Source: Schmidtea polychroa (taxonomy: Eukaryota). From it: a stretch of 64,000 nt of DNA. Below the pieces are notes generated by a model. It made no database searches and was not told where the DNA came from. It saw only the letters and a program-made list of their open reading frames with translations. Shown piece by piece: positions 20,771 to 56,630 of the stretch. The translations under genes were made by a program, and so were the position numbers. Position 1 is the first letter of the stretch; the number at the start of each line of letters is the position of its first letter. The stretch lies in assembly GCA_044892525.1 (NCBI GenBank), contig CM097885.1, positions 1,116,001 to 1,180,000 on the forward strand. Direction: 5' to 3'.

Positions 20771-22335
20771 ATGAATGTTCGAGAAAAAATTCAGGAATTT
20801 GGTAAATTTTAATTTATTTATTAATTAATTTATTAATTAATTTAGATAATATTAATGAAGACAATTTAAAATCGAAGATTAAAGGAAATTTGAAAAGAAA
20901 AAGTAAACATAATTTTTAATTTATTAATTTAATTAATTAATAATTTAGGTAATACGAATAAAGAGAAAAAATATGTCAATGTGTCAATAAATCGAAATGG
21001 AAATTTACAATGTAAGTATTGATTACTTTTTATAATTTAAAGGAAATTTAATATAATTTTTTATTTAAGTAAATGTTAATATTTTTAATTTAGTAAATTT
21101 TTATTTTTTAGTAAATAAAATTTGTAAAATAATAATAATTTGCAAATTTTTGCGTAAACATTTATTAAAATCTTTCATTTAAATTATATATTTTTATTAA
21201 ATTTTTATTTTATAGGTATACTTTATCCAAATTATTGTTCATCGAAAAAACATGATAATAATTGCCATTCTATAATGGAGAATTATTACACGAAAAAATA
21301 TTATAATAAAACTTATTTTATATGTCCCGTATGTAAGACTAGTGACCCTGTAACATATAGCGTTTTTTATAATAAACATAAAAATCATTTAGATAGGTTT
21401 AATTTTAAAAAAGATAGTGTTTTTAAAAGACCATCAACTATAGAAAAAAATAATACAAATAAAAAAATTAAATTAGATACTTCTTCTTTTGAATCCCAGG
21501 TCGGATTAGAGGTTGAATCCCAGGCTGGATTGCCTTTTGTTGAATCCCAGGTCGGATTGGTTGTTGAATTCAATGATGGATTATTCACTTCCTTTGATTC
21601 TTGGGATGGATTAAATATAATACAAATAGGTGGAAATGTATCGACAATACAAAGAGATTTAAGAGGTACCCATCAAATATTAAGTTTAAATACTAGCGAC
21701 TTAAATATAAAAGAAATAATATTTCCTGAACAACTAATAATAAAATTACGAGATATTATTAACGAATTAGGATCCGTCAAAATTCAATTCGGAATAACAA
21801 TCGAATTTGAAAAAGACGGGTAAATAAAGGTTAATAATATCTCAAATTACGCAAAACCTTTAACTGCATCATTTTTTGATCAAGGCATTAAGGAACTAAA
21901 TGAGAAAATAACTAATATTACAAAGTTAGGAAGCAATTGGATTATAAAAAATATAACAGAAATCCACTTTACTATAACAAAAATAAGTAGGTTAAGTAGA
22001 TTAAGTGGTAGGAGTTTCATTGAAACACCTACTTATCTATAAAATAAATATTGTTTAATTAATATAAAAAACACTGATGATTCATGTTTTTTATATAGCA
22101 TTTTAGCTATTTTAAAATATGATGAAGTTAGTAGTTATGCTAGAAATAGGACATCGAGTTATAATTTATCCGACTTAGTATATAACCCGTTAGAATTACC
22201 TATGAAATTTAAAGACATTAGGAAATTTGAATCTAAAAATTCGGGTTTAATAATTAATGTTTTTTCATATGATAATAGCAAATAATTAACTGATAAATAT
22301 GTATTAAAACATCCACATTTAGATATTATACATCC
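20771..22335 (+). pseudogene. Spliced pPolB 5' portion (copy C); exons 20771-20801, 20846-20902, 20949-21011, 21216-
   Basis: Three GT-AG phase-1 introns give a continuous frame into ORF 21275-21823; stops downstream; INIKNTDDSCFLYSILA motif. Confidence 0.75.
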
Positions 22336-22369
22336 CAAAAACGCCATCGCTCTGATAGACAACTTACCC

Positions 22370-24474
22370 GTAAAGGCAAAGAATTCAATGTTTGACTGCT
22401 TTAGCTAAAGAATCATTAACAAATTCAAAAGAATCAATTCTTTTGCCTAATTGCGCAATCAAAGAAATAAATTTTTCAGTCGTTATTGGGATGCAACCTT
22501 AAGTCTAAATTTTAAATTTATTTAATCCGTATTTAAGTATATGATGCATATCGTATCCCTTCAAGTTGTGAAATACGATAGGCAAAATTTTATTTATTTT
22601 CTTATTTTTGTTATATGTGCTACAAGCTGCATCCAAATATTTCCCCGTAAAATGATCGTGATCTCTAACAGGATCAACGATAGATTTCATACAAAGATAA
22701 CAAACAGATGCACTAACAAATTGACGTTGTTTAATTTTCGTTAATTTAATCATAGGTTTCCTACCCATTTTATAATAAAAAGGAAGAACCTTATTTAATG
22801 CTATATCCTCTATAGCACTTAAAAAACTTTCGACGCAATCTAAACCTATGAACTGTTGATAAGATTTAGATACGTCAAAGTTATTTACAAGTAAAAGACC
22901 AGCAGATATTGTCATGTGTCGTTGGAAATGAACATTATCAGAAGGTAAAATAGCCTCAAAATCGGCATCAACTACAAAAGGAGGAGTTACTGTTTTCGAC
23001 CAGTCAGTAAACTGCAGTAATTTATTTTGAGGGAAAGTGTAAAGAGTTGTTCCTAATTGATTACGTTTACATAATATTTCATGTTTTTCCAGTGCGTGTT
23101 TGTACCTAAACATATTCAAACACCGATGGCACCATAATGAACGTATGCGTGTAGGACAACTAGTGTTGATACCACAATTCAGTAACCTATTTAAATTACT
23201 TATAGCAACGTAATGGAAATTGTTTCCTTTATTTAAAAGTAGTAAATTAATTACAGTTCCATTTAAAACTTTGGAACGATGTATAATATCTAAATGTGGA
23301 TGTTTTAATACATAATTATCAATTAATTGTTTGCTATTATCATATGAAAAAAAATTAATTATTAAACCCGAATTTTTAGATTCAAATTTCCTAATGTCTT
23401 TTAATTTCATACGTAATTCTAACGGGTCGTATACTAAGTCAGATAAATTATAACTCGATGTCCTATCTCTAGCATAACTACTAACTTCATCATATTTTAA
23501 AATAGCTAAAATGCTATATAAAAAACATGAATCATCAGTGTTTTTTATATTAATTAAACGATATTTATTTTTTAGATAAGTAGGTGTTTCAATGAAACTC
23601 CTACTACTTAATCTACTTAACCTACTTATTTTTGTTATGGTGAAATGTATTTCAGTAATATTTTTTATATTCCAACTGCTTCCTAACTCAGTAATATTAG
23701 TAATTTTCTCATTTAATTCTTTAATGCCTTCATCAAAAAATGATGCAGTTAAAGGCTTTGCCAAATTTGAGATATTATTAACCTTTATTTCCCCGTCTTT
23801 TTCAAATTCGATTGTTATTCCGAATTGAATTTTGACGGAGCCTTATTCGTTAATAATATCTCGTAATTTTATTATTAGTTGTTCAGGAAATATTACTTCT
23901 TTTATATTTAAGTCGCTGTATTTAGGCTTAATATTTGATGGGTACCCCTTAAATCTCTTTGTGCTGTCGGTACATTTCCACCTATTTGTATTATATTTAA
24001 TCCATCCCAAGAATCAAAGGAAGTGAATAATCCATCATTGTATTCAACAACCAATCCGACCTGGGATTCAACAAAAGGCAATCCGACCTGGGATTCAACA
24101 ACCAATCCATCATTGGATTCAACAAAAGGCAATCCGACCTGGGATTCAACAAAAGACAATCCGTCCTGGAATTCAACCTCTAATCCGACCTGGGATTCAA
24201 AAGAAGAAGTATCTAATTTAATTTTTTTATTTGTATTATTTTTTTCTATAGTTGATGGTCTTTTAAAAACACTATCTTTTTTAAAATTAAACCTATCTAA
24301 ATGATTTTTATGTTTATTATAAAAAACGCTATATGTTACAGGGTCACTAGTCTTACATACGGGACATATAAAATAAGTTTTATTATAATATTTTTTCGTG
24401 TAGTAATTCTCCATTATAGAAATGGCAATTATTATCATGTTCTTTCGATGAACAATAATTTGGATAAAGTATAC
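22370..24474 (-). pseudogene. pPolB copy D (N-terminal region, Exo I, endonuclease VII-like insert, Exo II)
   Basis: INIKNTDDSCFLYSIL, HYVAISNLNRLL, CHRCL, (D)ADFEAIL, CYLC..RDHDHFTGKY..AAC, VFHNLKGYDMH; frameshifts. Confidence 0.88.
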
Positions 24475-24489
24475 CTATAAAATAAAAAT

Positions 24490-25275
24490 TTAAATAACGT
24501 CATCGATATCGATATCATATTCTCCAAAATCTTCTCCAACATCTTCAATAAATTCTTCCTTATCTTCTCCAACATTTTCATCAAATTCATCTCCAACAAT
24601 TTCTCCAACATTTTCTCCAACAATTTCTCCAACATTTTCGCCAATATTTAATTCACTTAATCTTACATGCCTATATGCAAGACTAGTATTTTTCCCCACC
24701 CAAACCCTTTTGTCATCTTTGTTAGTTAGTGCTATTTTATTATTTTTAATTGTAAAAATTTGATGATTTTTGTTTGTTAATTTTGTTTGAGGAATCGAAA
24801 AAATTTGATTAGTTTTATAACAATCCAGGTATGACTGATGTTTTATGTCACTACCTTTCAATGTTACACCTTTAGCCTTTTTTGTTTCTTCATCACCCAA
24901 CAAGCTATAACACTTGGGTCTAAGAAAAACCCATTCCTTATATTTAAGACCTTTATTCTCGTCTTTGAACTATCCAATGACAGAATCAAGGTTCTTACTA
25001 TATAACGAATGACAACTTTTGTAATCGAAGTATGTAATAAATTATCTCGAATCATTGCAGGTAAAAGAACCTCAAGTTTACAGTTAATGACTTCGAGGAA
25101 AAAAGAGTCTGTATCACCTGCAACGATATTAATTTTATTAACAAATTGATAAAAATCAATGAATCTTAAGCTTATTTTGCCTAAATGCGCAATCAAAGAA
25201 ATAAATTTTTCAGTCGTGATTGGGATGCAACCTAAAGTCCAATTTTTAAATTTGTTTAAACCATATTTAAGAATA
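24490..25275 (-). pseudogene. pPolB copy E (C-terminal part with large internal deletion)
   Basis: RFID.YQFVN fused to KINIVAGDTDS; KKAKGV, DDKR, acidic tail. Confidence 0.85.
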
Positions 25276-29721: not shown

Positions 29722-30159
29722 ATGTTAGCAAATATAAATTATCGAGGAAATTTTGATGTATCGAATATGAGGTTCCCACCAGGGAAACCCCAGCAAATTA
29801 TCGATAGAAGTGGGAAATATCCGATAATATTTTTCAAGACTGGTAAATGCCGAATCATGGGATGTAAGAAACCTTTGGATATTAATAAATTACAATATCG
29901 AATAAATAATATTACAATCCAATCAATTACCGTTACTATGGATATGGGACATAGTATCAATCTATATAACATGTCGAAAAAATGTGATTGTATGTTTGAA
30001 CCGGAATTGTTTCCGGCACTAAGACTATTAAAATATAACCCTATATGTGTCAACGTGTTTGCTAGTGGAAATGTTGTCATGTTGGGGTTGAGAAATTTGG
30101 AGTATAGAGAATTTGTTGACAATGTTCGAAATGAGATAATTTCATTGGTCGATTTCTAA
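29722..30159 (+). CDS. Divergent TATA-binding-protein-like protein (core fold only, 145 aa)
   Basis: Two TBP repeats: NINYRG..IIFFKTGKCRIMG and IQSITVTMD..INL..FEPELFPAL..VNVFASGNVVMLG. Confidence 0.85.
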   Translation: MLANINYRGNFDVSNMRFPPGKPQQIIDRSGKYPIIFFKTGKCRIMGCKKPLDINKLQYRINNITIQSITVTMDMGHSINLYNMSKKCDCMFEPELFPALRLLKYNPICVNVFASGNVVMLGLRNLEYREFVDNVRNEIISLVDF

Positions 30160-30235: not shown

Positions 30236-30590
30236 ATGTACAAATTACCAAGCTCTGCAAACCTCATGAAGGATATCGACGATTACGGTAAATTTTAAAT
30301 TTTTATTTTCACATTATTTACTATTTATTATTTTAGAAAAATATTTAGATGTAATGATCAATACACTCAAATACTATTATCCTCAAATTATTGAAATCAT
30401 CAAGGATCGAGAAGCAGAAATAATTCCGGACCTCATTTTCTACTCAACCCAAATAAGAATTATGGAGGTATTCCATCAATTCTTATGGGATATAAAGATT
30501 AACAGAACAGTGAAAGAAATGAAGCCGGAATATCAATGTATGTTCGGATGTTCCTGCTGTGCCGATCGATATCGGCGATATGTGGAATGA
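30236..30590 (+). CDS. Hypothetical two-exon protein with C-terminal Cys cluster (CMFGCSCC)
   Basis: Exon 30236-30287, 49-nt GT-AG intron, exon 30337-30590 in frame; AATAAA downstream. Confidence 0.6.
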
Positions 30591-31467: not shown

Positions 31468-31853
31468 ATGAAAATGACTGCAGAAAAAGGTTAACATGAT
31501 TAATTAATTACCGAATTATTTATTATTTAGAATTTTTAATCAACTTTTTGTTGGAAAAGTTACCAGAAATATCTGGTGTGAAAATTGAGGACATATTATC
31601 TATTACAAATGCCTTAAATATCGGCTGGTTAGTTGAGAGTCAAGATACAGGATTTGATGATGAGGAAGAAACTCAAGAAACCGATACTCAAGAAATTGAT
31701 GAGGAAATCTATGAACCTATAGATGAACCTATAGAGGAACCTATAGAGGAACCTATAGAGGAATCTAAAGATAATATTACGAATGATTGTATTGATCATG
31801 TCGTTGAAAATATAATGAAATGTGGAGATGACGACTGCGAATGTGTTAATTAA
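31468..31853 (+). CDS. Hypothetical two-exon highly acidic protein with (EEPI)n repeats
   Basis: Exon 31468-31489, 41-nt GT-AG intron, exon 31531-31853 in frame. Confidence 0.6.
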
Positions 31854-31936: not shown

Positions 31937-32457
31937 TTAATTTTTATTTAAAAATCTGGTTAATATATACAAAATAGCAACACCTGTTGCAAGTTTTACA
32001 TAGTTTTTAAATTTTCTTTTCTGATCATCAATTTCCTTCGCATTTCTGGCGAGTTGATTGAGTAGTCCCCATCCGCCATTGGCTTCAATCCATGGTTGAA
32101 ACTTTGACTTGATTATCTAGAAAATAAATATTAATAAAATATAAATTATAAAAGTATTACTTCTTGAGACCACTGATAATAGTGCTCTGAGTCCCATAGA
32201 CTTCTTTGGATTATTATTTTCATATAAGCGAACCCTACTAGTATTCGGGTCCACTTCATCTGATCGTCGCATAGACAGTTAAAAATTCTATTAAAATAGA
32301 ATTTTTTGGTTTCGAGACAATCAGAATTGATCACATCTTCATAATCAATGTGATTACCTTCTATAATCTTTTCGGTCTGATCGACCAGGAAACATAGGCT
32401 TTCCATAATATTCCTGTTGACGAGTTCTCTTAAAAGATTTTCCATAAATTGAGACAT
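31937..32457 (-). CDS. Bcl-2 family protein, two exons (32457-32161, 32116-31937), 158 aa
   Basis: BH1-like LCDDQMKWTRILVGFAY, 44-nt GT-AG intron, BH2 FQPWIEANGGW, C-terminal anchor KLATGVAILYILTRFLNKN. Confidence 0.85.
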
Positions 32458-32562
32458 TTTTACAATAATTTAAAATATGATGTTTTATTTATACTAATAC
32501 CGGATGATTTTGATTGGTTGATAGACTATAAATGTAAAAGAAAGGTTTTGATTTGATACACC

Positions 32563-33369: not shown

Positions 33370-33910
33370 ATAATATGACCTTGGGAATTCTGATGAGTCA
33401 TCGGATGAGTCATATGACCTTGGAAATTTTCAATGAGTCATAGTATGACTCACATGACCTTGAAAATGACCTTGGTGAATCATAGGATGAGTCAGATGAC
33501 CCTGAGGAAATTTTTTCAAGGTCATATGACTCATACTATGACTCATATGTCCTTGAAAATGTCCTTGATGAGGCATAGGATGAGTCAGATGGCCTTGAAA
33601 ATTTTTTTCAAGGGCATATGAGTCATACTATGAGTCATATGGCCTTGGGAAAAAATTTCCATGGCCACATGAGTCATAGTATGAGTCATATGACCTTGAT
33701 AGTGACCTTGATGAGTCATGGACTTTGTTTAAATGACCTTGAAAAATTTTTTTGACCTTGATGAGTTATATTATGAGTCATACGACCTTGAAAATGACCT
33801 TGATGAGTCATAGGATGAGTCATGGTCTTTGTTTAAATGGCCTTGAGAAATTTGATGAGTCATACTATGAGTCATGGTCTTTGTTTCAATGACCTTGATG
33901 AGTCATATGT
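33370..33910. repeat. Subterminal array of TGA(G/C)TCA pairs and TGACCTTG motifs
   Basis: More than 15 TGAGTCA/TGACTCA, often paired 12 bp apart, interleaved with TGACCTTGA. Confidence 0.9.
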
Positions 33911-33949: not shown

Positions 33950-33996
33950 ATGACGACCGGGGGGGTACTGTGCTAGCGGTGCCCAATCCATCTACT
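33950..33996 (-). other. Candidate Polinton-type terminus (5'-AGTAGATGGATTGGGCACC.. on the minus strand)
   Basis: GC-rich block ending CATCTACT, abutting (ATA)n; AGTAG start resembles the terminus at 18176; partner end not found. Confidence 0.45.
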
Positions 33997-34170: not shown

Positions 34171-37100
34171 TTAGTCCTCATCAGACAAAATAACGTCATC
34201 GATATCGATATCATCTTCTCCAAAATCTTCTCCAACATCTTCAATAAGTTCTTCCTCATCTTCTCCAACATTTTCACCAAATTCATCTCCAACAATTTCT
34301 CCAACATTTTCTCCAACAATTTCTCCAACATTTTCTCCAATATTTAATTCACTTAATCTTACATGCCCATTTTTTCAGCAGCTTCAGGGAAATCATCCAA
34401 CTTCTCATTTAGCTCAGAATAAATTACAAAATCAACTTCAAGAGTGTATCCATAAGACAAAGAATCAAGATTTAAATTCCTACATTCATCCATTATTAAA
34501 TCAAATCCATCAAGAACCCAACTAAATTCACCACAAGGTAATGATTGACTTAAAGCCCAACCATATAGATTATTAATACTTATATAAAGTAACTCGGTGT
34601 TCTCATCGGTTTTTACGTAATGCTAATTCACAAAAGTAATACCGCCTCTTATTCCACCCTCATAAAAGCTAAACATTTCGTTTTCAGTTATGAGCTCAAT
34701 TGGTTCATTTAAAGACATTAATGCCGAAGACCAAGACATACCTGGAATTCCGAAATAATTCAATGGTTCCAATCTATTGTGAGCAATAGATTTCAACCGA
34801 AACTGATGAAAGAAATCAGCCAAAAGAAAACAATCAAGTTTTAAGTAGATCATCATATAATCTAATAAAATTAGGCAATTAGTTTCTACCCAAATCTCCT
34901 GAGCTTTTTCATACTAAAGCTCAGTAACACCCTCCCAGATTGGTGGTAATTCATAAGTAGTTTGGAGAATATCTAAAGATGTAGCGAAATTATAAGGGAA
35001 GATTCCTTTTTCAGAAACTATAGTGCCAGAAAAAACAGAATTAGTAAAAGGCAAAGAATTCAAAGTTTTGACTGCTTTAGCTAAAGAATCATTAACAAAT
35101 TGATAAGAATCAATGAATTGATAAGAATCAATTCTTTTGCCTAAATGCGCAATCAAAGAAATAAATTTTTCAGTCGTTATTGGGATGCAACCTAAAGTCC
35201 AATTTTTAAATTTATTTAATCCGTATTTAAGTATATGATGCATATCGTATCCCTTCAAGTTGTGAAATACGATAGGCAAAATTTTATTTATTTTCTTATT
35301 TTTGTTACATGTGCTACAAGCTGCACCCAAATATTTCCCCGTTAAATGATCGTGATCTCTAACAGGATCAACGATAGATTTCATACAAAGATAACAAACA
35401 GATGCACTAACAAATTGACGTTGTTCAATTTTCGTTAATTTAATCATAGGTTTCCTACCCATTTTATAATAAAAAGGAAGAACCTTATTTAATGCTATAT
35501 CCTCTATAGCACTTAAAAAACTCTCGACGCAATCTAAACCTATGAACTGTTGATAAGATTTAGATACGTCAAAGTTATTTACAAGTAAAAGACCAGCAGA
35601 TATTGGCATGTGTCGTTGGAAATGAACATTATCAGAAGGTAAAATAGCCTCAAAATCGGCATAAACTACAAAAGGAGGAGTTACTGTTTTTGACCAGTCA
35701 GTAAACTGCAATAATTTATTTTGAGGGAAAGTGTAAAGAGTTGTTCCTAATTGATTACGTTTACATAATATTTCATGTTTTTCCAGTGCGTGTTTATACC
35801 TAAACCCATTCAAACACCGATGGCACCATAATGAACGTATGCGTGTAGGACAACTAGTGTTGATACCACAATTCAGTAACCTATTTAAATTACTTATAGC
35901 AACGTAATGGAAATTGTTTCCTTTATTTAAAAGTAGTAAATTAATTACAGTTCCATTTAAAACTTTGGAACGATGTATAATATCTAAATGTGGATGTTTT
36001 AATACATAATTATCAATTAATTGTTTGCTATTATCATATGAAAAAACATTAATTATTAAACCCGAATTTTTAGATTCAAATTTCCTAATGTCTTTTAATT
36101 TCATAGGTAATTCTAACGGGTCGTATACTAAGTCAGATAAATTATAACTCGATGTCCTATCTCTAGCATAACTACTAACTTCATCATATTTTAAAATAGC
36201 TAAAATGCTATATAAAAAACATGAATCATCAGTGTTTTTTATATTAATTAAACAATATTTATTTTTTAGATAAGTAGGTGTTTCAATGAAACTCCTACCA
36301 CTTAATCTACTTAACCTACTTATTTTTGTTATGGTGAAATGTATTTCAGTAATATTTTTTATATTCCAACTGCTTCCTAACTCAGTAATATTAGTAATTT
36401 TCTCATTTAATTCTTTAATGCCTTCATCAAAAAATGATGCAGTTAAAGGCTTTGCATAATTTGAGATATTATTAACCTTTATTTCCCCGTCTTTTTCAAA
36501 TTCGATTGTTATTCCGAATTGAATTTTGACGGAGCCTTATTCGTTAATAATATCTCGTAATTTTATTATTAGTTGTTCAGGAAATATTACTTCTTTTATA
36601 TTTAAGTTGCTGTATTTAAGCTTAATATTTGATGGGTACCTCTTAAATCTCTTTTACTGTCGGTACATTTCCACCTATTTGTATTATATTTAATCCATCC
36701 CAAGAATCAAAGGAAGTGAATAATCCATCATTGGATTCAACAACCAATCCGACCTGGGATTCAACAAAAGGCAATCTGACCTGGGATTCAACAAAAGACA
36801 ATCCGTCCTGGGATTCAACAACCAATCCATCATTGGATTCAACAAAAGACAATCCGACCTGGAATTCAACAAAAGACAATCCAGCCTGGGATTCAACCTC
36901 TTATCCGACCTGGGATTCAAAAGAAGAAGTATCTAATTTAATTTTTTTATTTGTATTATTTTTTTCTATAGTTGAGGGTCTTTTAAAAACACTATCTTTT
37001 TTAAAATTAAACCTATCTTAATGATTTTTATGTTTATTATAAAAAACGCTATATGTTACAGGGTCACTAGTCTTACATACGAGACATATAAAATAAGTTT

Positions 37101-37193
37101 TATTATAATATTTTTTCGTGTAATAATTCTCCGTTATAGAATGGCAATTATTATCATGTTCTTTCGATGAACAATAATTTGGATAAAGTATAC
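34171..37193 (-). pseudogene. pPolB copy G (N-terminus to motif A, then deletion to the acidic C-terminus)
   Basis: VYADFEAIL, RDHDHLTGKYLGAAC, FHNLKGYD, KGIFPY, YLKLDCFLLAD, GIRGGIT, INNLYGWA; deletion junction ~34368. Confidence 0.9.
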
Positions 37194-37208
37194 CTATAAA
37201 ATAAAAAT

Positions 37209-38441
37209 TTAAATAACGTCATCGCTATCGATATCATATTCTCCAAAATCTTCTCCAACATCTTCAATAAATTCTTCCTTATCTTCTCCAACATTTTCAT
37301 CAAATTCATCTCCAACAATTTCTCCAACATTTTCTCCAACAATTTCTCCAACATTTTCTCCAACAATTTCTCCAACATTTTCTCCAATATTTTATTCACT
37401 TAATCTTACATGCCTATATGCAAGACTAGTATTTTTTCCCACCCAAACCCTTTTGTCATCTTTGTTAGTTAGTGCTATTTTATTATTTTTAATTGTAAAA
37501 ATTTGATGATTTTTGTTTGTTAATTTTGTTTGAGGAATCGAAAAAATTTGATTAGTTTTATAACAATCCAGGTATGACTGATGTTTTATGTCACTACCTT
37601 TCAATGTTACACCTTTAGCCTTTTTTGTTTCCTCATCACCCAACAAGCTATAACACTTGGGTCTAAGAAAAACCCATTTCTTATATTTAAGACCTTTATT
37701 CTCGTCTTTGAACTTTCCAATGACAGAATCAAGGTTCTTACTATATAAGGAATGACAACTATTGTAATTGGAAGTATGTAATAAATTATTTCGAATCATT
37801 GCAGGTAAAAGAACCTCAAGTTTACAGTTAATGACTTCGAGGAAAAAAGAGTCTGTATCACCTGTAACGATATTAATTTTATTAACAAATTGATAAGAAT
37901 CAATGAATCTTAAGCTTATTTTGTCTAAATGCGCAATCAAAGAAATAAATTTTTCAGTCGTGATTGGGATGCAACCTAAAGTCCAATTTTTAAATTTGTT
38001 TAAACCATATTTAAGAATATGGTGCATATCGTATCTCTTCAAGTTGTGAAATACGATAGGCAAAATTTTATTTATTTTCCTATTTATGTTGCATGTGCTA
38101 CAAGCTGCACCCAAGTATTTCCCAGTAAAATGATTGTGATCTCTAACCGGATCGACGATACATTTCAAACAAAGGTAACAAACAGATGCACTATAGCACT
38201 TAAAAAACTCTCGACGCAATCTAAACCTATGAACTGTTGATAAGATTTAGATCCATCAAAGTTATTTACAAGTAAACGACCAGAAGATATTGGCATGTGT
38301 CGTTTGAAATGAACATTATCGGAAGGTAAAATAGCCTCAAAATCGGCATCAGCTACAAAAGGAGGAGTTACTGTTTTCGACCAGTCAGTAAACTGTAATA
38401 ATTTATTTTGAGGGAAGGTGTAAAGAATTGTTCCTAACTGA
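37209..38441 (-). pseudogene. pPolB copy H, multiply deleted
   Basis: ORF 37392-38219 with RDHNHFTGKYLGAAC, GDTDS, GKFKDE, LRPKCYS, KAKGV, DDKR. Confidence 0.88.
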
Positions 38442-40269
38442 TTTTTTATGTGTTTAGTTAATGTTTATATGTTTTGTTATGTGTCTAGTTATTTTTATGT
38501 GTTTAGTTAATTTTTATGTGTTGTATAGTATTTGGTTGAAATAATAATATTATTATTAATCTATAAAAAAAAATTTCATTAAAAAAATTTACTTAAAAAA
38601 TTAATCCACTAAAATTTTCGTTGAAAATTATCTTAAAAAATTTTTATTAAAGATTTTCATTAAAAAATTTCAATTCTTAATTACTGACTATTATTCCAAC
38701 TTTTTGTTAATAAATTTAAAAATCTTACTTTAATTTACTTATTACTTTAATTAAAAAATTTGAAACTTAATTTACTTATTTCAGCCCATTGATTACCAAA
38801 TATATCTATTAATTTACTTTAATTCAAAATTCTTAGCCCATAATTTACTATATTTCAATTTTTAGACCCTTAATTTACTGTAATTCAATTTTTGAACCAT
38901 CATTTACTTTAATTTTAAATTTAAGAACCATAATTTACTTTAGTTTAAAAATTTGAACCTTAATTAACTAATAAAAGTTAAATTATCATTTTCAATTAAT
39001 ATTTTACAAACATAAAATTACAATATTTGAAATTCTAAATATCTCTATTAACATGTTTGCAATTAATTTTAAAAATACAAAAATTTTACAAAATTTTCAA
39101 ATTGAATATTAAATATTTTTTTAATTTGCATTTGATAATGTTTATTCTTAATAAGATTTTCCCATGAGAAAATTCATATTTGTTTAAATGCAAAACTTTA
39201 AATTTAATTCTATAAAAAAAAATTATTTTTCAAGACGTCTAAAAGCTCTAGGACAAGAAGAAAATACAGTTTAGAAAGGTAGTGAGTGAATTTCCTAATG
39301 AATTACAGAAGGGTATAGGACAAAGTTCCAGTTCTCTATTCTCAATTTATCATCAATCAGCAGCGACATTGACAAAGTTTTTCTTAAACAAGCTGCAAAT
39401 TTATATATAAAATTACATAAAAATTGTTGATAAATTGTTAAAGTTTTAATAATATATTTCGAATAATAAAAATTTCCCTTGATAAAATTCTGAATATGAA
39501 ATAAATATTAAAAATTATATTAAAATTTAAAACTGTAAAAATTTTAAATTTTATTTATAAATTTCATTTTTAAATTGTTTTATTAATCAATTTATTAGAA
39601 AATAATCTTAATGAAGCATTTTAAGTATTATTTTAGTTTTAACTAATTTTTCTAAATTTTATTTAAATTTATTTTTGTAGTCGTTTATGATATGGAGGCC
39701 TTTAAGCAGTTAGTCTTAGTTAACGTAGCTCTCTTCGCTGGTAATAATACAAATTACCTTTTACCTTGACTGCATTGATGGAGGTGCTACTCGTCATGAA
39801 CCTACCTCATGCAGTTATCAATTTGTATGCCGAATGTACTTTACCGTCGAACTTCCTGTGGCTTCGTCATAATCATTCTTATTGGTCTAACAATGTACCG
39901 CACTACGTCGATCCCTCTTATAAGGTTTCTGAATTTCAACATTTTGCTCTTATCATAGCCCATTTTTGACTACTTTGGTGACAACATCAGAGTGCCTTCT
40001 TTTATTTTTTACCTTTTTAGGATCTGACCTTCACAGTGGATACATAAAGATTTTCAGCAAAAGCCTCAGCGATATGTAATTTCATTTATTTCCATTTTCA
40101 GCGTAGATTAGACTAGTAATGTCATGTAATTCTGAACACTTCTCATGCTTTCTTTCTTTATTTTCAATTTCTAGTTTAATATTTACATCCATCATTTTTA
40201 TTTTTATTTTTATTTTTATTCTGATATTGCATTTATTATTTCTATGTAGATAGTTTAATACCTAAATCG

Positions 40270-40507: not shown

Positions 40508-41065
40508 TGTAATGTACAGTTATTTTTGTTAATATTTTAGTATTCACAATTAGGAATTGTGTATACTAAGATATAAAATACAACCATCTGGGAAATCCAG
40601 ATTTGTAATAAAAAACTATATAGCGATAATTTACTATAGTAAATTATCGCTATAGTAAATGACAAAAAAATTGAAAATAAAAAATCAATGACGAATAGAA
40701 TATGGAAACGATAATTTGTTTTGAGAACTGAAAATTCATTTCTTTACCAAAGACTTTTAAGTAGAATTTATGGTATAGAAAAATCAAAGAAAACATTTGG
40801 AAGTATAATTCTCGAATATCAAAGACAGATACAAGGTTTTAATTTTTTGTTGTAATAAATTTTTAAAGTTGTAACGTTTATTATTGTTTTACATTATATC
40901 TATAACTTTATATTGTTTGTAAATTTTATATATTGAACATAACACGCACCCCGATTGTCCCGCTACAAGTTTTAACGGTGACTCTTTCGGGCTCTTCAAA
41001 TTCTCCTCCAGAATAACATAAGTTAACAATAATTAACAATAATAACAACTATAACCTCCATAACA
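40508..41065 (+). repeat. 5' LTR
   Basis: TGTAATG..TAACA; no differences from the 3' LTR seen by eye. Confidence 0.97.
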
Positions 41066-41067
41066 AC

Positions 41068-41079
41068 TGGTGTCAGAAG
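41068..41079 (+). other. Primer-binding site TGGTGTCAGAAG (tRNA-Leu type)
   Basis: 2 nt after the LTR, begins TGG, complementary to a tRNA-Leu 3' end. Confidence 0.8.
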
Positions 41080-41257
41080 AAAAAATATATACAACACACG
41101 CATTCTACGTTTTCTTTCAATCACGAAACCTTTCAGTATAGTTATTATAGAACTATAAAGGCTAGTGACACTGTTGGCCGAACACAGTAGGCCATATCCT
41201 TCAAACAAACCACAATTTTTTTCGCACAACAAGCAATAAAAAATAACAAAACAATTA

Positions 41258-42433
41258 ATGGCATCAAATCAAACAAATCCAATAAATATTCCACAAACAC
41301 CCAACAACTACGATAATACTCAAACTTCAGAAAACACCAATTACTACTACAACCCAAACACCAACCCAGAAAACACACATACCATTAATTCAATAATCAA
41401 CCCAAAAACAAATATCCCCAACTATTTCACAGATGACAACGGAACACCGCAAAAATGGTTAGAATTCGCGAAACTAACCTTGACACTATCGGGAGTCAAA
41501 TCAACAAAATCCCTATGCTCCAACATAATAGCAGCACTACCAAGTAACAAATTAAACGAAATCGCCGACCAAATTGATGAAATATCGAAAGACGATGACC
41601 CTTTTACAAAACTGTGTAACATATTGACCAACAAAAACAAAGTCAACAGAAGGCAAATGCTAGAGTCATGCCTCAACAACACACAGTTAGGGGACAACAA
41701 GCCCACAGATTTCCTACGACAGTTAAAACAAAAACTGGAATATCTACAACCAAACATAACAAACTCCGGTTCCAACGAATTGGTGAAAGAATTCTTCATG
41801 CGCGCTATGCCACCGGAAATTAGACGAATCCTAGCTGCTAGCAGTAACGCTGACGTCGAAACACTCGCTGACATAGCGGATAAAATAAACGAAGAAATCT
41901 ACCCCACAATCTGCAGTACCCAAAACTACAACAGAAATAAAACTAATCACAACACCCAATCAACCAACAAAAACACAGAACCAAATGAAACAACAAACCG
42001 ATTAATAAACACTTTGATCAGCAAATTCGACGAAATAATTGTCGAAAACAGACAAATAAAAGCGGAACTAGCCGAAATAAAAGAGAAATACAACAGGCAA
42101 AATTTCAATCCAAACGAAAACAGAGACCTATTCAACAGAAACAATTTCAACACAGACCAACTATCATACAATCATAACAGACAAAACTACGACCGACCAC
42201 CCAACGAAAACAATAGACAGAACTACAGCCACAGACAATCCCCAAACGGTCACGACAGAAACCGGTCAAACTCACCAAATCGATACAACAATTACCGAAA
42301 TAGCAGCCCAGAAAGAAATTCAAGAAAAGATTTCCTAAACAAAAACCACTGCTACTTTCATAACAAATTCGGCGACAAAGCATATAAATGCATAAAACCC
42401 TGCGAATTCCACAAAACAGAGCAGGAAAACTAA
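41258..42433 (+). CDS. gag: Gag
   Basis: LGDNKPTDFLRQL, ADKI, C-terminal CYFHNKFGDKAYKCIKPC knuckle. Confidence 0.93.
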   Translation: MASNQTNPINIPQTPNNYDNTQTSENTNYYYNPNTNPENTHTINSIINPKTNIPNYFTDDNGTPQKWLEFAKLTLTLSGVKSTKSLCSNIIAALPSNKLNEIADQIDEISKDDDPFTKLCNILTNKNKVNRRQMLESCLNNTQLGDNKPTDFLRQLKQKLEYLQPNITNSGSNELVKEFFMRAMPPEIRRILAASSNADVETLADIADKINEEIYPTICSTQNYNRNKTNHNTQSTNKNTEPNETTNRLINTLISKFDEIIVENRQIKAELAEIKEKYNRQNFNPNENRDLFNRNNFNTDQLSYNHNRQNYDRPPNENNRQNYSHRQSPNGHDRNRSNSPNRYNNYRNSSPERNSRKDFLNKNHCYFHNKFGDKAYKCIKPCEFHKTEQEN

Positions 42434-45400
42434 AAATGTCACCATTGATAGCACCCACATTTGGTGACAACAATAATACTTTCACGGTGCGTTCAAACAA
42501 TACAGATTTTCTAATCGACACAGGTTCTGTGATCTCCCTATTACCACACTACTTATACAAAAATACAAAAACTACAGAAAAGTCACTAACCGCTGCCAAT
42601 GGCTCCAAAATTAAAACATTTGGCCAATATACAATAACACTCACAATAAATTCAAAAAAATACAGTTGGCCATTCACAATCGCAGAAGTACAACAGTCAA
42701 TAATCGGGGCCGATTTCTTAGCAAATTACAACCTAATAGTGGACTGTCGAAACAAGAAAATAGTCGAAAACAACAAAACAGACAAAGAAACAGCCAGGAA
42801 CACAACATCAAACTTTTCGAAAGTAGACATCGGCGTGATTCAAACAAGTACACCAACTATCAAAACAATTAAAACTATTGAACACGTACCAGAAATAGTC
42901 ACACTACTGGCAAAATACGATAAACTCTGCGAACCAGTAACTTTCGATGGAAATTCAAACCACACTACTGAACACGCAATACTGACAAACGGAAACCCAG
43001 TCCACTCAAAAGTAAGACCACTGGATCCAAAAAAAATAGAAATCACAAAAAATATATTTAACGAACTGTTGGAAAATAATATAGTAAAACATTCAAACTC
43101 AGAATGGTCTTCAGCACTGATGCTAAAACAAAAAGCTAACGGGGAATGGAGAGCTTGTGGCGATTACAGACTCCTGAACAAAATAACAGAGCCCGACAGC
43201 TATCCATTACCGATAATAAAAGACATAATAAATCGACTAAATGGCGCAAAATATTTTTCAAAAATTGACCTACAAAAAGCATATCATCAGATCCCAATTA
43301 GAAAAGAGGACATAAAAAAGACAGCAATAACAACACCGATCGGCATGTTCGAATACAACCGAATGCCTTTCGGTCTACGAAATGCCGCAGCAACTTTCCA
43401 ACGATTCATGGATCAAACAATGAAAAACAACAAAAACACAATCGCTTATCTGGACGACATCCTAATAACAAGCCCAGACAAAGAAACACATCTAAAGGAC
43501 GTGGAAAAAGTGTTCAAAACGCTGGACAATGCAAAACTAAAAATAAACACTCAAAAGTGCGAATTTATGAAAACGGAAATAAATTTCCTTGGTCACACGC
43601 TAAACGACAAAGGAACACAACCAATAGAAAACAAAATAAACAATATAAAAAACTACAAACTGCCGACAAACACAAGAGAGTTGAGGAGATTTCTAGGAAT
43701 GGTAAACTTTTATCATTCTTACATCCCAAATTGCAGCAACCTACTGGCACCACTAAACGACATTATCAAAACCAAACGAAACGTAACAATAAACTGGACA
43801 CAACAAACAACCGACACATTCAATAAAGCCAAAGAAAGCCTATCAACGGCAACACTACTCGGTTACCCAGATCCAGAACTAGAGTATCAACTAACTACAG
43901 ACTGTTCTGGTTTTGCAATGGGCGCAACAATTTTCCAGGAAAATAAATTCGGCAAACAACCACTGGGATTTTTCTCGAAAAAACTAAAATCACATCAAAC
44001 AAGATACTCAACATTTGACAGAGAACTCCTAGCAATACACGAAGCAATCAAACACTTTCAACATTTACTCGAAGGACGAACCTTCAAAATATTCACAGAC
44101 CACAAACCGCTAACAAACGCAATAGAAATGAAAAACCCTTCACCAAGGCAGATCAGACAAATCAATTTCATTTCACAATTCAACTGCACAATAAACTACG
44201 TAGCAGGAAAATCAAACATAGCAGCAGATGCTCTATCCAGAATTGAAAGTGACATAAACGCCCTAGAATTCGGAGAAATAATTGAATTGGATCAAATCAA
44301 ATCCAGACAAACCGATACATTAAGCAAACTGCCTACTAAACACAGCCTGAAACTACAGGAACTCGACGGAATATGGCACGATGTCTCCAACGAAAGCAAC
44401 AAACGAATCCTACTACCCGAAGAACTCCGACAAGACTGCATAAAAAAGATACATACTATCAATCATCCCGGAAACAAAATAACATTCGAGTTAATACATA
44501 ACAAATATGTATGGCCTCACATGCGGGAAGACATCAAGAATTACGTCAAAAGTTGCCACAGCTGCCAATTAAATAAAACAACAAAAAAACCCAAAACACA
44601 AAAAGTAAACTTCCCAAGCAGTGAAGCGTTTGAAACAATACACACAGACGTAGTAGGACCACTACCACCAAACGACAACTACAAATATCTACTAACAATT
44701 ATAGACAGAAAAACCAATTGGTTCGAAGCGATCCCAATAAAAGAAATCACAGCAAAAAATATCTGCGAAATGATCGAACTAAACTGGATAGCTCGTTACG
44801 GCCAACCGAAAACAATCATAACTGATCAAGGCAGACAATTCGAATCAGAAATGTTCAAAATACTGTGCAATAAATACAATATGAAAAGAAATCGAACAAC
44901 AGCTTACAACCCACAATCAAATGGGAAAATCGAACGGTTTCACAGAACATTAAAAGAAAGTATCAGGACAAAAGCCAATGACCAAAACTGGTTAAACCAA
45001 CTTCCAACAATATTAATCGGACTAAGAAATAGCCCAAATTCAACAGATAATGAAAGTCCAGCATACAAAGTTTTCGGAAAAGCAACAAACTTGCCATCAC
45101 TTAAATCAGATACAAACAAAAACACCGAAAACAGCAAACAAATAACAAACAAAAATAGCGAAACCACCGAACAGAAACCAAAAGGAATTTTAAAAAGAAG
45201 ACCGGACTCCGAATTAGACGGAAAAATAGTATTAACAACAGATTTCATCCTAATAAAAAAACCATTCACAAAAGGATTCGAATCCAAATACGAGGGTCCA
45301 TTCAAACTCCTAGAAATTAACAAAAACGTCGCCACAATAATCAAAAACCACAACAAAATGAAAATAAACATAAGACGAATAAAACCCTATCACCAAAACA

Positions 45401-45573
45401 AAAACCCACAAAACAACTCACCGCAAGACAAAACACAAACCCAAACACAAACAAAAAAACAACCAATTCAGAAAAACATCACATTCAACCACAAAAATTC
45501 AATCAAAATATTCGACAAAGACACAATACTGGCTCCACTATACAAAAAACGTTACAGCGAATGCTTTAAATAA
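42388..45573 (+). CDS. pol: Pol (protease, RT, RNase H, integrase), -1 frame relative to gag
   Basis: LIDTGS, DYRLLN, MPFGL, YLDD, RELLAI, TDHKPL, HHCC, TDQGRQF, NGKIERFHR. Confidence 0.97.
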   Translation: MHKTLRIPQNRAGKLKMSPLIAPTFGDNNNTFTVRSNNTDFLIDTGSVISLLPHYLYKNTKTTEKSLTAANGSKIKTFGQYTITLTINSKKYSWPFTIAEVQQSIIGADFLANYNLIVDCRNKKIVENNKTDKETARNTTSNFSKVDIGVIQTSTPTIKTIKTIEHVPEIVTLLAKYDKLCEPVTFDGNSNHTTEHAILTNGNPVHSKVRPLDPKKIEITKNIFNELLENNIVKHSNSEWSSALMLKQKANGEWRACGDYRLLNKITEPDSYPLPIIKDIINRLNGAKYFSKIDLQKAYHQIPIRKEDIKKTAITTPIGMFEYNRMPFGLRNAAATFQRFMDQTMKNNKNTIAYLDDILITSPDKETHLKDVEKVFKTLDNAKLKINTQKCEFMKTEINFLGHTLNDKGTQPIENKINNIKNYKLPTNTRELRRFLGMVNFYHSYIPNCSNLLAPLNDIIKTKRNVTINWTQQTTDTFNKAKESLSTATLLGYPDPELEYQLTTDCSGFAMGATIFQENKFGKQPLGFFSKKLKSHQTRYSTFDRELLAIHEAIKHFQHLLEGRTFKIFTDHKPLTNAIEMKNPSPRQIRQINFISQFNCTINYVAGKSNIAADALSRIESDINALEFGEIIELDQIKSRQTDTLSKLPTKHSLKLQELDGIWHDVSNESNKRILLPEELRQDCIKKIHTINHPGNKITFELIHNKYVWPHMREDIKNYVKSCHSCQLNKTTKKPKTQKVNFPSSEAFETIHTDVVGPLPPNDNYKYLLTIIDRKTNWFEAIPIKEITAKNICEMIELNWIARYGQPKTIITDQGRQFESEMFKILCNKYNMKRNRTTAYNPQSNGKIERFHRTLKESIRTKANDQNWLNQLPTILIGLRNSPNSTDNESPAYKVFGKATNLPSLKSDTNKNTENSKQITNKNSETTEQKPKGILKRRPDSELDGKIVLTTDFILIKKPFTKGFESKYEGPFKLLEINKNVATIIKNHNKMKINIRRIKPYHQNKNPQNNSPQDKTQTQTQTKKQPIQKNITFNHKNSIKIFDKDTILAPLYKKRYSECFK

Positions 45574-45802
45574 AAACACAAACATACACAAACAAACACA
45601 CGCACAAACAGCGTTAATTGTACAGTTTTTATTTTTCTTGTAAATACAAAACAAAATGTAAATTTTTAATTTTATTGAAGTTGTAGATACAAAGAAACAG
45701 AAACAAAATACACAAAAACATATAAAACATACGAAAAAAAAAGGTTATTGAATGTAATTTTTTTACGTTACTTTTTATTGATTCATGTTAACCTCCGGTT
45801 TT

Positions 45803-45813
45803 AAAGGGGGAAG
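45803..45813 (+). other. Polypurine tract
   Basis: AAAGGGGGAAG just upstream of the 3' LTR. Confidence 0.85.
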
Positions 45814-45816
45814 TTA

Positions 45817-46374
45817 TGTAATGTACAGTTATTTTTGTTAATATTTTAGTATTCACAATTAGGAATTGTGTATACTAAGATATAAAATACAACCATCTGG
45901 GAAATCCAGATTTGTAATAAAAAACTATATAGCGATAATTTACTATAGTAAATTATCGCTATAGTAAATGACAAAAAAATTGAAAATAAAAAATCAATGA
46001 CGAATAGAATATGGAAACGATAATTTGTTTTGAGAACTGAAAATTCATTTCTTTACCAAAGACTTTTAAGTAGAATTTATGGTATAGAAAAATCAAAGAA
46101 AACATTTGGAAGTATAATTCTCGAATATCAAAGACAGATACAAGGTTTTAATTTTTTGTTGTAATAAATTTTTAAAGTTGTAACGTTTATTATTGTTTTA
46201 CATTATATCTATAACTTTATATTGTTTGTAAATTTTATATATTGAACATAACACGCACCCCGATTGTCCCGCTACAAGTTTTAACGGTGACTCTTTCGGG
46301 CTCTTCAAATTCTCCTCCAGAATAACATAAGTTAACAATAATTAACAATAATAACAACTATAACCTCCATAACA
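45817..46374 (+). repeat. 3' LTR
   Basis: Matches 40508-41065. Confidence 0.97.
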
Positions 46375-49156: not shown

Positions 49157-51079
49157 GGGATGTAGACCAGTCGTCCACCGTAAACACTACTTTAACCACT
49201 GGAACAATCATGTGAGTCATATCAAATGTCTTAAGTGAATAAGGAAGTTTGGAATTAGAGTCGACACCACGCACTATATAGTCGCGAAGTCCAGCTAAGT
49301 GTTTTTAGGGATAAAATCATCACATCATGCTTGCCGAGATTGATTCTCAACAAGCTCTCAAAGGAGGGCATAGCCATAAGACCTCGCCAGTTTAGAGTGA
49401 CTGCTCCAAAACCTACCTCATATGCTCCTTTATTTTTAATCCATTGTGTGACTTCATCCACTTGATACTTTCCTGCCTTCTCAGTATTTCTAGTATAAAG
49501 ATTCTCGTTGTCGTTGATGATCTGGACGTCCAGAACCATCGCTTGGTTGTCTTTAAGAAGAATAAGATCCGGTTTGCGGTAGCTCTCCTTGTAGGGAGTA
49601 ATCGGTTCTATTAATGCCTCCCACCCTTTGCTCCGTGCCGCAGACACTATATAATTAACTAACTTATTGTGCCTTTTTACTCTCAGACCATGCAAGTCTG
49701 GGCACTTCTGAGCAACCGACTTTACATATAAGAGGTCCTTTTGCATGCATTCTACTGATCCTAGTGGGTGTATACATTAAACTACCTCTCACTTTTACTG
49801 CATTGATGAAAGTTCGACCAGTCATCAATTTCCCTCGTGCAGTTAACAATTTGTGTGCACACTGCACTTCTTTGGCTTCACAAAGCCCTTTACCATCTAA
49901 CTTACTATAAAGATTCATAGCAGTGGCTTCGTAGTATTGTTTCTTGGTGGCTATTGGCGTCTCTTGTAGGAACAACGGTTTATTCCATTTTGCCAATTGT
50001 GACCTGACCGCTTCGTTCTCGGCCAATAAGCTTATCTTCTCATCCCTGCACTCTTCAATACGTCTAAGCCTATCACGCTTCGCAAATAGTACCTCTGTCA
50101 ACAGGGCTGGCACACCCAGCCCCCCATTTTTAATTTTACTATTTATAAATGATGAACAAGTATCGGTTGGCAGGTGTAACCATTTGCGAACCGGGCCTCT
50201 AGTCATTTTATCCAATACCCCTAATTCGGTGGTATCGGTTTCCCCCAGCACAGCCTCATGTAAGATACCTGGTATCAAAAAGTCACTAAGCACCTCTAAC
50301 TTTTGTTGCGGCTTAATAGGTGCCCTCGTAATATACTCAAGACGCTTAGTATAAAGATTGGATAGCTTTTTAGTAGTGCGACCAAGGGCTCCAAATTGGA
50401 TCCCAAAATACTTATAGTAGTCGTCAGGTGACATGGCAGGGAACTCTTCCCCATCAGCACTTACCTTTTCGCTAGTAACCATCCATTTTTTCTGCTTACC
50501 GTCCCCTCGCGCTATAATGGAGGCACCTTAAAAGCGATTCAGGATAACCCGCTAATTTCGCCGCTCTCATGATACTATCATGATTCACAGAATCGAAGGT
50601 CTTTTTCATATCGACAAAGGCAATTGCTACATTCCTAAATTTAGTTCGCGCATCAGAAAGGATGCAATCCAGCAAAGTGGTGTTTTCAAGGCACCCATCC
50701 ACTGGCTAGCTTGAAGAGCGGAGCATGCGGTATAGTTCTCAAGGCCTTCGCGCTAATGCCGTCAGGACCACTAGCCGTGTGCAGCTACTGACTTATCCTC
50801 AGTTGTCCTCTGGACAGGCCGGGTATCGGGTTTAGACTCTTTTTCGAAAACCTGTTTCCAATAGTCCCCTCTACCCGGCATTGGATCATCCTCCAACAGC
50901 AGACTATCCAGCTTACCTTCAAGGATAGTGCTAGCGGCCGCACTTCGATCCTTCTGGAATAATCTCTGCAAATCCCCATAAATAGCTCTCTTCTTAGCTA
51001 CCTTTATGTGCTTTTTAACCTTTGTACCATCCACGGGGACCTGGTACGTTTGGTTAAACTTGTTTTTCCTCTTTTTGAG

Positions 51080-52835
51080 TTTTACTTGAAACTGCTTAGT
51101 TACTGATAAGCAATATTCATCAAGCAAAACTCGTTGAGAATTTTCATCTTCAGTAAGGATGATCCTATCCAGTTGGTCCTCATGCCAAATGCTATGACCC
51201 TTGCTCCGAGGGAATTTCCTTAAAATAGTCATGATGCCTGGAGATGGACTCGGGGCTTGTAGGTTCTCCATCGCCTGCTCCATCGCCTGCTCCATCGCCT
51301 GCTCCATGCCCATCCCCTTCATCTTGTCTTCTAACTCTTTAAACACTGCTTTATATTTATTACTATCTAAGTGTTTGCGAATGGATTCCTTTGAACGTTT
51401 GAAGGCTGAACATCCAAGGTGAAGTATATCAAGAAGGTGAGATTGAGGTCTATAACGATTTTCAAGGTGAAGTTGAGCCATGAGGAGCTCTTCTTCATTA
51501 CTCCAGTAATAAGCAGGTTTATTGGAAAGTTTCCTCAAGATGGCCTCATCACGTAAGGTGCGATGGGATTTAGATATTTTACTTGAAACTGCTTAGTTAC
51601 TGATAAGCAATATTCATCAAGCAAAACTCGTTGAGAATTTTCATCTTCAGTAAGGATGATCCTATCCAGTTGGTCCTCATGCCAAATGCTATGACCCTTG
51701 CTCCGAGGGAATTTCCTTAAAATAGTCATGATGCCTGGAGATGGACTCGGGGCTTGTAGGTTCTCCATCGCCTGCTCCATCGCCTGCTCCATCGCCTGCT
51801 CCATCGCCTGCTCCATGCCCATCCCCTTCATCTTGTCTTCTAACTCTTTAAACACTGCTTTATATTTATTACTATCTAAGTGTTTGCGAATGGATTCCTT
51901 TGAACGTTTGAAGGCTGAACATCCAAGGTGAAGTATATCAAGAAGGTGAGATTGAGGTCTATAACGATTTTCAAGGTGAAGTTGAGCCATGAGGAGCTCT
52001 TCTTCATTACTCCAGTAATAAGCAGGTTTATTGGAAAGTTTCCTCAAGATGGCCTCATCACGTAAGGTGCGATGGGATTTAGATATTTTACTTGAAACTG
52101 CTTAGTTACTGATAAGCAATATTCATCAAGCAAAACTCGTTGAGAATTTTCATCTTCAGTAAGGATGATCCTATCCAGTTGGTCCTCATGCCAAATGCTA
52201 TGACCCTTGCTCCGAGGGAATTTCCTTAAAATAGTCATGATGCCTGGAGATGGACTCGGGGCTTGTAGGTTCTCCATCGCCTGCTCCATCGCCTGCTCCA
52301 TCGCCTGCTCCATGCCCATCCCCTTCATCTTGTCTTCTAACTCTTTAAACACTGCTTTATATTTATTACTATCTAAGTGTTTGCGAATGGATTCCTTTGA
52401 ACGTTTGAAGGCTGAACATCCAAGGTGAAGTATATCAAGAAGGTGAGATTGAGGTCTATAACGATTTTCAAGGTGAAGTTGAGCCATGAGGAGCTCTTCT
52501 TCATTACTCCAGTAATAAGCAGGTTTATTGGAAAGTTTCCTCAAGATGGCCTCATCACGTAAGGTGCGATGGGATTTAGATATTTTACTTGAAACTGCTT
52601 AGTTACTGATAAGCAATATTCATCAAGCAAAACTCGTTGAGAATTTTCATCTTCAGTAAGGATGATCCTATCCAGTTGGTCCTCATGCCAAATGCTATGA
52701 CCCTTGCTTCGAGGGAATTTCCTTAAAATAATCATGATGTCTGGAGATGGACTCGGGGCTTGTGGGTTCTCCATCGCCTGCTCCATGCCCATCCCCTTCA
52801 TCTTGTCTTCTAACTCTTTAAACACTGCTTTATAT
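51080..52835 (-). repeat. ~500-bp head-to-tail repeat (3.5 copies) of the R2-like Myb region
   Basis: Junctions at ~51577, 52086, 52583; internal 12-bp MEQA repeat varies 3/4/3/1. Confidence 0.93.
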
Positions 52836-55800: not shown

Positions 55801-56630
55801 TATTTAAGTTATCACTATTTTTAAATTTATCATTACAAGTTAAATTATCATTATCATGAGAGTCATAAGTATAATTATTAGAAGGTCTAAAATTATTAAT
55901 ACTATAATCTCTATAATAATTTTGATTATGATTACCCTTTTTTAATAAGTGAATCTTTCGAGCTGGGCAAAAAGTTTTCCAAGAGGTGGCATATATATCG
56001 GGAGTTTCATTCACTTTAGCATTCTTCTCAGAATAGTATCTCTTAGGCATACGGTTCACTTCATTGTTACAGGTAAGAGAACTTCCATTATTGATCGGCT
56101 CCTTGTGATTAATTGTATCCGTTATTTTAGTACGTGCTGTGGCAAATGTGCCATATTGCTTGAGGATCATCCTAACCGGGCAGTAAGATCTGATTTTCCT
56201 CGTTTCATATGTATCAGCAGGTGATTCGTCGGGTGGGGTCTCATCGGTTCTATATATATGTTTAGGATGCAATAAATTTACTTTATCGATTGGTTTATCT
56301 CTGGAAGAAGAGCCTCTCCCATGTGGATCTGAGGGGCCGAAGGAGATACATGAGGTCGAATATCATCAGCTCTATTAAAAAGTTTAGATAGTAATAACAA
56401 TAAGTTGTTCTTAATATTGTCTCCATTATTGGAGCTTCTTCCATCCAGGTAGGTATTATTATTCCTGGAATCCTGGATTATTTTTGATCAAAGAAAAACT
56501 TTTTTGAGAAAGAGTTGTTGTGGGAGTTCTTTCGTGTTAGATATCCTCCCACATGATGTTATTGAGTTATTGAGTTATTGAGTTCAATTAGGTTATTTAA
56601 ATGAAAATCATTTATATGGTTTTTTCTGCC
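52836..56630 (-). mobile_element. NeSL-like element N-terminal half (low-complexity ORFs, Cys/His region, degenerate Ulp1-like), RT absent
   Basis: ORFs 55445-56272 and 53886-55385 (LLKLNGRGKIECR similar to LFKLGSEGYLKCR in ORF 1726-5922); FVDPFIGNALIQHNYVTFFATFPF. Confidence 0.65.

Follow-up and report, generated by a model that had tools for sequence, protein, structure and literature searches.

Does the open reading frame of 103 aa on the minus strand of this planarian locus represent a complete gene, or is it the first part of a spliced Bcl-2 homologue, and if so, which element carries the gene, where did it come from and what would its product do? The stretch of DNA that was analysed (the window) comprises 64,000 nucleotides of Schmidtea polychroa, whose genome of 781 Mb is mostly contained in four large contigs. 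A sequence-only reading had proposed that a GT-AG intron of 44 nt (32160–32117) joins two exons into a protein of 158 aa, and that the motif WIEANGGW (BH2) and a hydrophobic tail are gained through the second exon. The coordinates and borders of this intron were confirmed, and both the motif and the tail were found at 32116–31937 (Table 1).

Table 1 Features of the Bcl-2-like gene and of its carrier element in the window
Feature	Position	Strand	Description
Exon 1	32161..32457	-	297 nt, 99 codons from ATG; N-terminal helices through BH1
Intron	32117..32160	-	44 nt, phase-0 GT-AG, GTAATA...TTCTAG, 9 % G+C
Exon 2	31937..32116	-	59 codons and stop; end of core helix, BH2, linker, tail anchor
BH1 core KWTR	32245..32256	-	Trp and Arg kept; Thr at the Gly position
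BH2 motif WIEANGGW	32069..32092	-	without intron after GGW
Predicted C-terminal membrane anchor	31949..31999	-	17 aa, mean Kyte-Doolittle hydropathy 1.62; basic residues upstream and at the end
Putative divergent promoter	32486..32532		TATA 32486–32493 (-), CCAAT 32513–32517 (-), TATA for the neighbouring ORF 32527–32532 (+)
Right end of element	33976..33996	+	terminal inverted repeat motif ending in CT; flanks diverge right after
TBP-like gene	29722..30159	+	Pfam TBP E=2e-14; homologue also beside the intronless gene in L043
Truncated pPolB-like ORF, 632 aa	27796..29694	+	52 % identity over 220 aa to a DNA_pol_B_2-positive fragment at 34914–36104

Motifs and fold of the predicted product

Scored separately, neither exon of the window gene reaches the curated cut-off of the Pfam Bcl-2 family (PF00452; 31.4 bits): exon 1 matches positions 12–66 with 17.8 bits and exon 2 positions 86–100 with 12.0 bits. 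Above the cut-off are a sister copy read through with X (L039, 34.6 bits) and the intronless gene L043 (32.7 bits). The BH2 motif, defined by the pattern W-x(3)-GGW, has the expected distance to the helix before it and aligns free of gaps on the unnamed protein P0004, which itself falls into a Bcl-2 cluster of the Atlas with a score of 0.95. The tail is hydrophobic in all three subfamilies (mean hydropathy 1.44–1.66 in a window of 17 aa), and the predicted anchor may target the product to membranes, possibly those of mitochondria. The tiling of both exons on P0004, the Pfam scores and the comparison of copies together bear out the earlier proposal of a Bcl-2-family gene that is spliced and encodes BH1, BH2 and a tail anchor.

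The evidence for the fold comes from models of sister copies. For the intronless sister L043 (pLDDT 73) all listed Foldseek rows are Bcl-xL or Bcl-2 (E 0.004–0.015), and the top eight rows of a wide structure search all belong to the Bcl-2 family with Z 7.3–9.0, a range which is common for helical bundles. The model of the read-through sister is poorer (pLDDT 57), with Bcl-2-family rows at E ≥ 0.02 and rmsd 12–18 Å and an unrelated protein as best match in the wide search, probably due to the 15 intron codons included. Matches of the family profile to PPR proteins were rejected as summed weak repeats.

The canonical BH1 core NWGR is absent from the window gene, which reads KWTR instead. This had been taken as a change that may alter binding specificity, and the first part of the claim stands: the glycine is gone, and since the loss of this residue affects the groove or the selectivity of other proteins, an altered specificity is plausible. 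A working BH3 groove is considered unlikely in one placozoan protein without the BH1 glycine, and a serine at this position alters the selectivity of mouse Boo, as stated in PMC8998228. However, the change is not special to the window gene. The corresponding core is RWSR in the host-type locus L032, KWSQ in P0004 and CWSK in L043, and NWGR was found in only two of eight host-like loci aligned; the same source describes NWGR as a common, not a universal, feature of the family (PMC8998228). As the glycine is also missing from the host-type relatives, its loss appears to be inherited and not an invention of the element.

The best reading of the product is that of a tail-anchored pro-survival protein of the mitochondria, to which we give a probability of roughly 55 %. 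A tentative and clearly less probable reading is a spliced protein with the Bcl-2 fold and a closed groove, which would act in innate-immune or stress signalling or in autophagy like the poxvirus proteins N1, A46, A52, B14 and K7. Such a role would agree with the missing BH1 glycine, a loss which points to other functions (PMC8998228), and with the inhibition of NF-kB by poxviral Bcl-2 folds (PMC7022251), but BH1 Trp and Arg, BH2 and the tail anchor are retained in three of three subfamilies, and PMC7022251 describes NF-kB activity as not found outside the poxviruses.

It is rather improbable that the gene encodes a dominant-negative or pro-death factor which ties up host pro-survival Bcl-2 proteins or aids the release of particles. 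The consensus LxxxGD in helix 2 marks killers of the Bak/Bax type. Helix 2 of the window gene reads LCFLVD and has no glycine at the place of that in LxxxGD, so that an intact BH3 is not found there. When the family is combined with its relatives in one profile, Bak chains do lead the Bcl-2 structures matched (E 1.6e-4), but the match is confined to the BH1 region, and a single sister sequence used as query matches A1 and Bcl-xL first.

Evidence for the intron

GT..AG is present at the same phase-0 codon boundary in all 49 copies having both exons, a count made after nine duplicate loci had been taken out. The intron is 44 nt long in 41 of these copies, 45 nt in three, 48 nt in three, and 42 and 51 nt in one copy each; five of the 49 copies are broken by a stop or a frameshift. 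Introns of 42, 45, 48 and 51 nt are in frame and contain TAG, those of 44 nt are out of frame. Splicing is the only explanation that covers both the in-frame TAG of some subfamilies and the changed frame of another.

Between subfamilies exon 1 evolves with a dN/dS of about 0.1. For exon 2, which is under purifying selection, the value is 0.12 and 0.13 against the subfamily L039/L041 (p 1.5e-7 and 3e-7) and 0.44 against L036 (p 0.039), and L039/L041 against L036 gives 0.28; the two other frames of exon 2 range from 0.99 to 8.4. Furthermore, six of the seven exon 2 variants common to at least five young copies are synonymous. The exon 1 changes among 19 near-identical copies (10 non-synonymous, 5 synonymous) look neutral, and single genomic copies therefore need not be functional. 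Synonymous divergence between subfamilies is far lower in exon 2 (0.46–0.82) than in exon 1 (1.4 or more), perhaps due to recombination or to an extra constraint.

Comparison with relatives leads to the same splice pair. Residue 97 of exon 1 aligns with residue 109 of the full-length relative P0004 and residue 1 of exon 2 with its residue 112; the two exons thus abut and their join leaves no gap. Under a profile from which the intron-bearing family was left out, the read-through of both exons with X reaches 47.5 bits and the unspliced ORF 28.2 bits, and among 14 frame-keeping GT-AG pairs the pair 32160–32117 ranks first under the same family-free profile (47.5 bits; next 43.1 and 42.5 bits).

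No intron junction was seen among the joints listed for four sequencing runs, X1, X2, X4 and X6, of which three are presumed RNA and one is of uncertain type; the joint table was filled by the deep run X6, 13 further joints stand outside it, and none of 16 runs is recorded as RNA. The intron sequence is present in X1 at a depth of 186 vs 40 for the exon-2 contig, with all 30 bins covered, and this run may hold DNA. One X1 contig starts exactly at 32116, as expected where a spliced and an unspliced path fork, which is a weak hint of splicing.

The view that splicing does not occur, in which case the 44 nt would be an insertion or a site of recoding and the 103-aa ORF, if anything, would be translated, could draw on these reads, on the public gene calls P0001 and P0003, which end at the unspliced stop, and on the identity of the AT-rich intron between subfamilies (0.71–0.84), which is no lower than that of the exons. 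It is very unlikely nevertheless: both calls come from short contigs with the calling method unstated, the unspliced C-terminus differs from subfamily to subfamily, and in-frame and out-of-frame introns alike keep GT..AG together with a selected exon 2. From the sequence comparisons the window gene is very probably a real spliced gene, and it serves as a warning that annotation by ORFs only truncates the accessory genes of Polintons.

Two neighbouring genes of the element, at 30236–30590 and 31468–31853 (+), also look split by short AT-rich phase-1 GT-AG introns (30288–30336 and 31490–31530), where splicing opens frames of ~101 aa and ~114 aa, respectively. Host-type introns hence appear to be normal in the element.

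The carrier element

The gene is almost certainly cargo of a Polinton/Maverick element of the adintovirus type. The flank of copy L002 (L081) has Pfam matches to rve (E=3e-5), Pox_A32 (E=4e-7) and Peptidase_C5 (E=1e-4), the latter an adenain-type protease, TBP is found there as well, and ORFs of 427 aa and 360 aa stand in the expected cassette. From their position and from motifs we take these two ORFs as putative capsid genes; neither has a Pfam capsid match. A match to the 427-aa ORF lies 5.8–6.5 kb from the Bcl-2 gene in at least 13 of 20 copies, among the 103 listed of 5006 candidates. The copies stop at a common end motif and their flanks are unique directly after it. Genome-wide, this motif was matched 851 times on the forward and 833 times on the reverse strand (0 for the control), and among its first 100 places inverted motifs 17.7–21.5 kb apart surround at least five Bcl-2 copies. 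Polintons/Mavericks are reported to range from 15 to 25 kb (PMC6431247).

The copy in the window is rearranged. It has kept its right end (33996), its pPolB-like ORF ends after 632 aa, shortly before TBP, and the segment 25392–26960 is inverted relative to L081; integrase, A32-type ATPase, protease and the capsid cassette are absent from the window copy. Matches to DNA_pol_B_2 are located ~4 kb from copies of the L043 family, while the window family shows only the truncated ORF. The gene in L043 adjoins homologues of the same TBP and of the same 136-aa ORF.

Full-length DNA matches to the gene reach 98–100 % identity in all 40 that were scored of 2085 candidates, and those to exon 1 reach 96–100 % in all 150 scored (the best 150 of 2345 candidates). 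That the gene is by now domesticated by the host and no longer selfish cargo is most improbable: 149 of these 150 exon-1 matches are free of stops, but they are the best-scoring ones, the count of 49 copies includes the five broken ones, and the copies, 96–100 % alike, are scattered with unique flanks.

Bcl-2 cargo in Polinton/adintovirus elements is already known, and the present gene adds a member. Bcl2 and IAP homologues are reported from adintoviruses (Starrett et al. 2021, PMC8502044), and at least three Bcl2 labels are found on the genome maps of the supplement; in the available text of this supplement, whose maps are figures with labels that may be missed, no planarian term or TBP occurs. 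Both the adintovirus Bcl2 and the planarian gene are accessory genes of elements that also encode pPolB, integrase, A32/FtsK ATPase and protease, along with capsid genes, which are putative in the planarian element. Unlike the adintovirus gene, the planarian one is interrupted by an intron of the spliceosomal type and clusters with a paralogue from the genome of its host, and it resembles the lancelet adintovirus protein (UniProt A0A5H3CWZ2, Branchiostoma) only remotely (15 % identity and E 0.25 by fold, with the model of the intronless sister). Its grouping with the host paralogue and its distance from the lancelet protein make it look like a separate capture. A literature search, which covered sources other than Repbase reports and subscription papers, gave no report of a planarian Polinton Bcl-2.

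A BCL2-like motif is also carried by the giant Burro LTR retrotransposons of planarians (PMC6431247). Both are mobile elements with Bcl-2-like cargo, but in Burro it is a domain of a retroelement polyprotein, whereas here it is a free-standing spliced gene; L042, the one giant-ORF locus aligned, is 16 % identical. Dozens of Pfam Bcl-2 matches in the genome lie inside ORFs of 700–3000 codons, as expected of giant LTR elements of the Burro type.

Several further features of the elements were observed. The integrase ORF at L081:4748–5839 has an in-frame trinucleotide expansion of ~69 codons within the catalytic region; an interpretation of this long Ile run as an intron was rejected, as there is no GT donor and the run is an in-frame microsatellite. 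Four near-identical tandem eIF4E ORFs, ~1.7 kb apart, adjoin a Polinton end at L082:1315–7032. A subterminal repeat array at 33375–33900 of the window, variable between copies, is rich in TGAGTCA, an AP-1-like site. At C1:1346303–1363396 and C1:29602228–29617439 inverted end pairs enclose two Bcl-2 copies in opposite orientation, which suggests palindromic derivatives of two right arms. Within the window the Bcl-2 element is flanked by pPolB fragments that belong to another Polinton family and are nested, inverted and duplicated (21197–25275 and 34200–38500). In addition, a Gypsy-type LTR element is located at 40508–46374; its 558-bp LTRs are 100 % identical and its insertion is therefore recent. 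Non-LTR retroelements occupy 58506–62828 and 49255–58156; in one of them an Ulp1 protease precedes the RT, and another contains tandem partial duplications (50771–52801).

Relatives, origin and proposed role

A resemblance to viral Bcl-2 proteins, which the sequence-only reading had put forward, found no support in that form. The nearest relatives are the host-type locus L032 and P0004, both at 26–29 % identity, and the viral fold matches are weak (E ≥ 0.02). With adenovirus E1B-19K, EBV BHRF1, ASFV A179L and poxvirus F1L/M11L the gene has in common that it is compact and tail-anchored (PMC7022251), and the purpose, to keep the host cell alive, is probably shared, but no close sequence kinship to these mimics was found. 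Like the cellular family members L032 and P0004, it has BH1, BH2 and tail anchor in register and a BH1 without glycine.

Two divergent subfamilies were obtained from a Pfam scan of the genome (68 % and 75 % protein identity). L043 represents a second Polinton family with an intronless Bcl-2 of 144 aa, which is 22 % identical to the intron-bearing gene and 45 % to L032. A profile of the intron-bearing family alone scores P0004 with 64.9, L032 with 56.7 and L043 with 45.9 bits, and seven other host-like loci with 19 bits or less. In a tree of 11 rows, from which L033, L034, L035, L042 and P0005 were left out, the intron-bearing family, P0004, L032 and L043 form a clade with support 96/93; a first tree with all 16 rows gave 69/91 for the same clade, and long branches meet there. 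The test for one clade of all Polinton Bcl-2 genes was uninformative (p-AU 0.42). Outside the genome, three related proteins were detected by a full HMMER scan and one by a word-index search with exon 1; L043 as query in the word-index protein search and scans of viral and metagenome contigs gave no relative. In more distant subfamilies the match to L043 stops near the intron position.

L032 has one match in the genome search, and no Polinton gene was found in its 3.3-kb locus. GT follows directly after GGW in L032, and a search of 1.5 kb for its second exon gave none. An exon boundary after GGW is described as conserved across the Bcl-2 family (PMC8998228); the GT after the BH2 Trp is missing in three of six host-like loci compared. 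Unlike L032, the Polinton Bcl-2 genes read through GGW into the tail, and the window family has its intron 16 codons upstream. This reading through GGW fits a capture from spliced mRNA with a later gain of a new intron, and we infer this order of events. A descent from the host lineage of L032 is likely.

The following course is proposed. A Polinton/Maverick would have captured a divergent host Bcl-2 paralogue long ago, and the gene would then have been kept under purifying selection. Planarian Polintons are reported to be under repression by PIWI and to become de-silenced during differentiation (PMC8532177). Once the element is de-silenced, host RNA polymerase II would transcribe the gene from the putative CCAAT/TATA promoter; CCAAT and TATA are found upstream in all four intron-bearing sequences compared. 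The host spliceosome would remove the short AT-rich intron, and the tail would anchor the protein of 158 aa in the outer membrane of the mitochondria. There it might restrain host killers of the Bak type, and the cell would survive while the element replicates or packages. Bak, Bcl-2 and cytochrome c are reported to take part in planarian apoptosis (PMC7022251, PMC8998228). With Thr at the BH1 Gly position, the set of BH3 partners is probably narrower or different.

A more far-reaching possibility, which we consider doubtful, is a survival drive in stem cells: hundreds of copies would supply a groove-altered Bcl-2 to differentiating cells with active Polintons, which would so escape culling; two Polinton families and giant LTR elements would have converged on one host checkpoint in an animal that regenerates, and through the new intron the splicing machinery of the host would gain control over the gene.

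A pro-survival cargo would point to cell death as a limit on these endogenous elements and offers a target testable by RNAi in a planarian. The likely capture from host to Polinton is traceable in one genome, which holds the donor lineage, an intronless and an intron-bearing version. Two observations concern other Bcl-2 loci of the genome. A Polinton-like TBP lies less than 1 kb from a host-like Bcl-2 exon at L033:275–658, and seven near-identical, clustered genes of the NWGR type (L021–L027; C4, 89.9–90.8 Mb) read through GGW with no intron.
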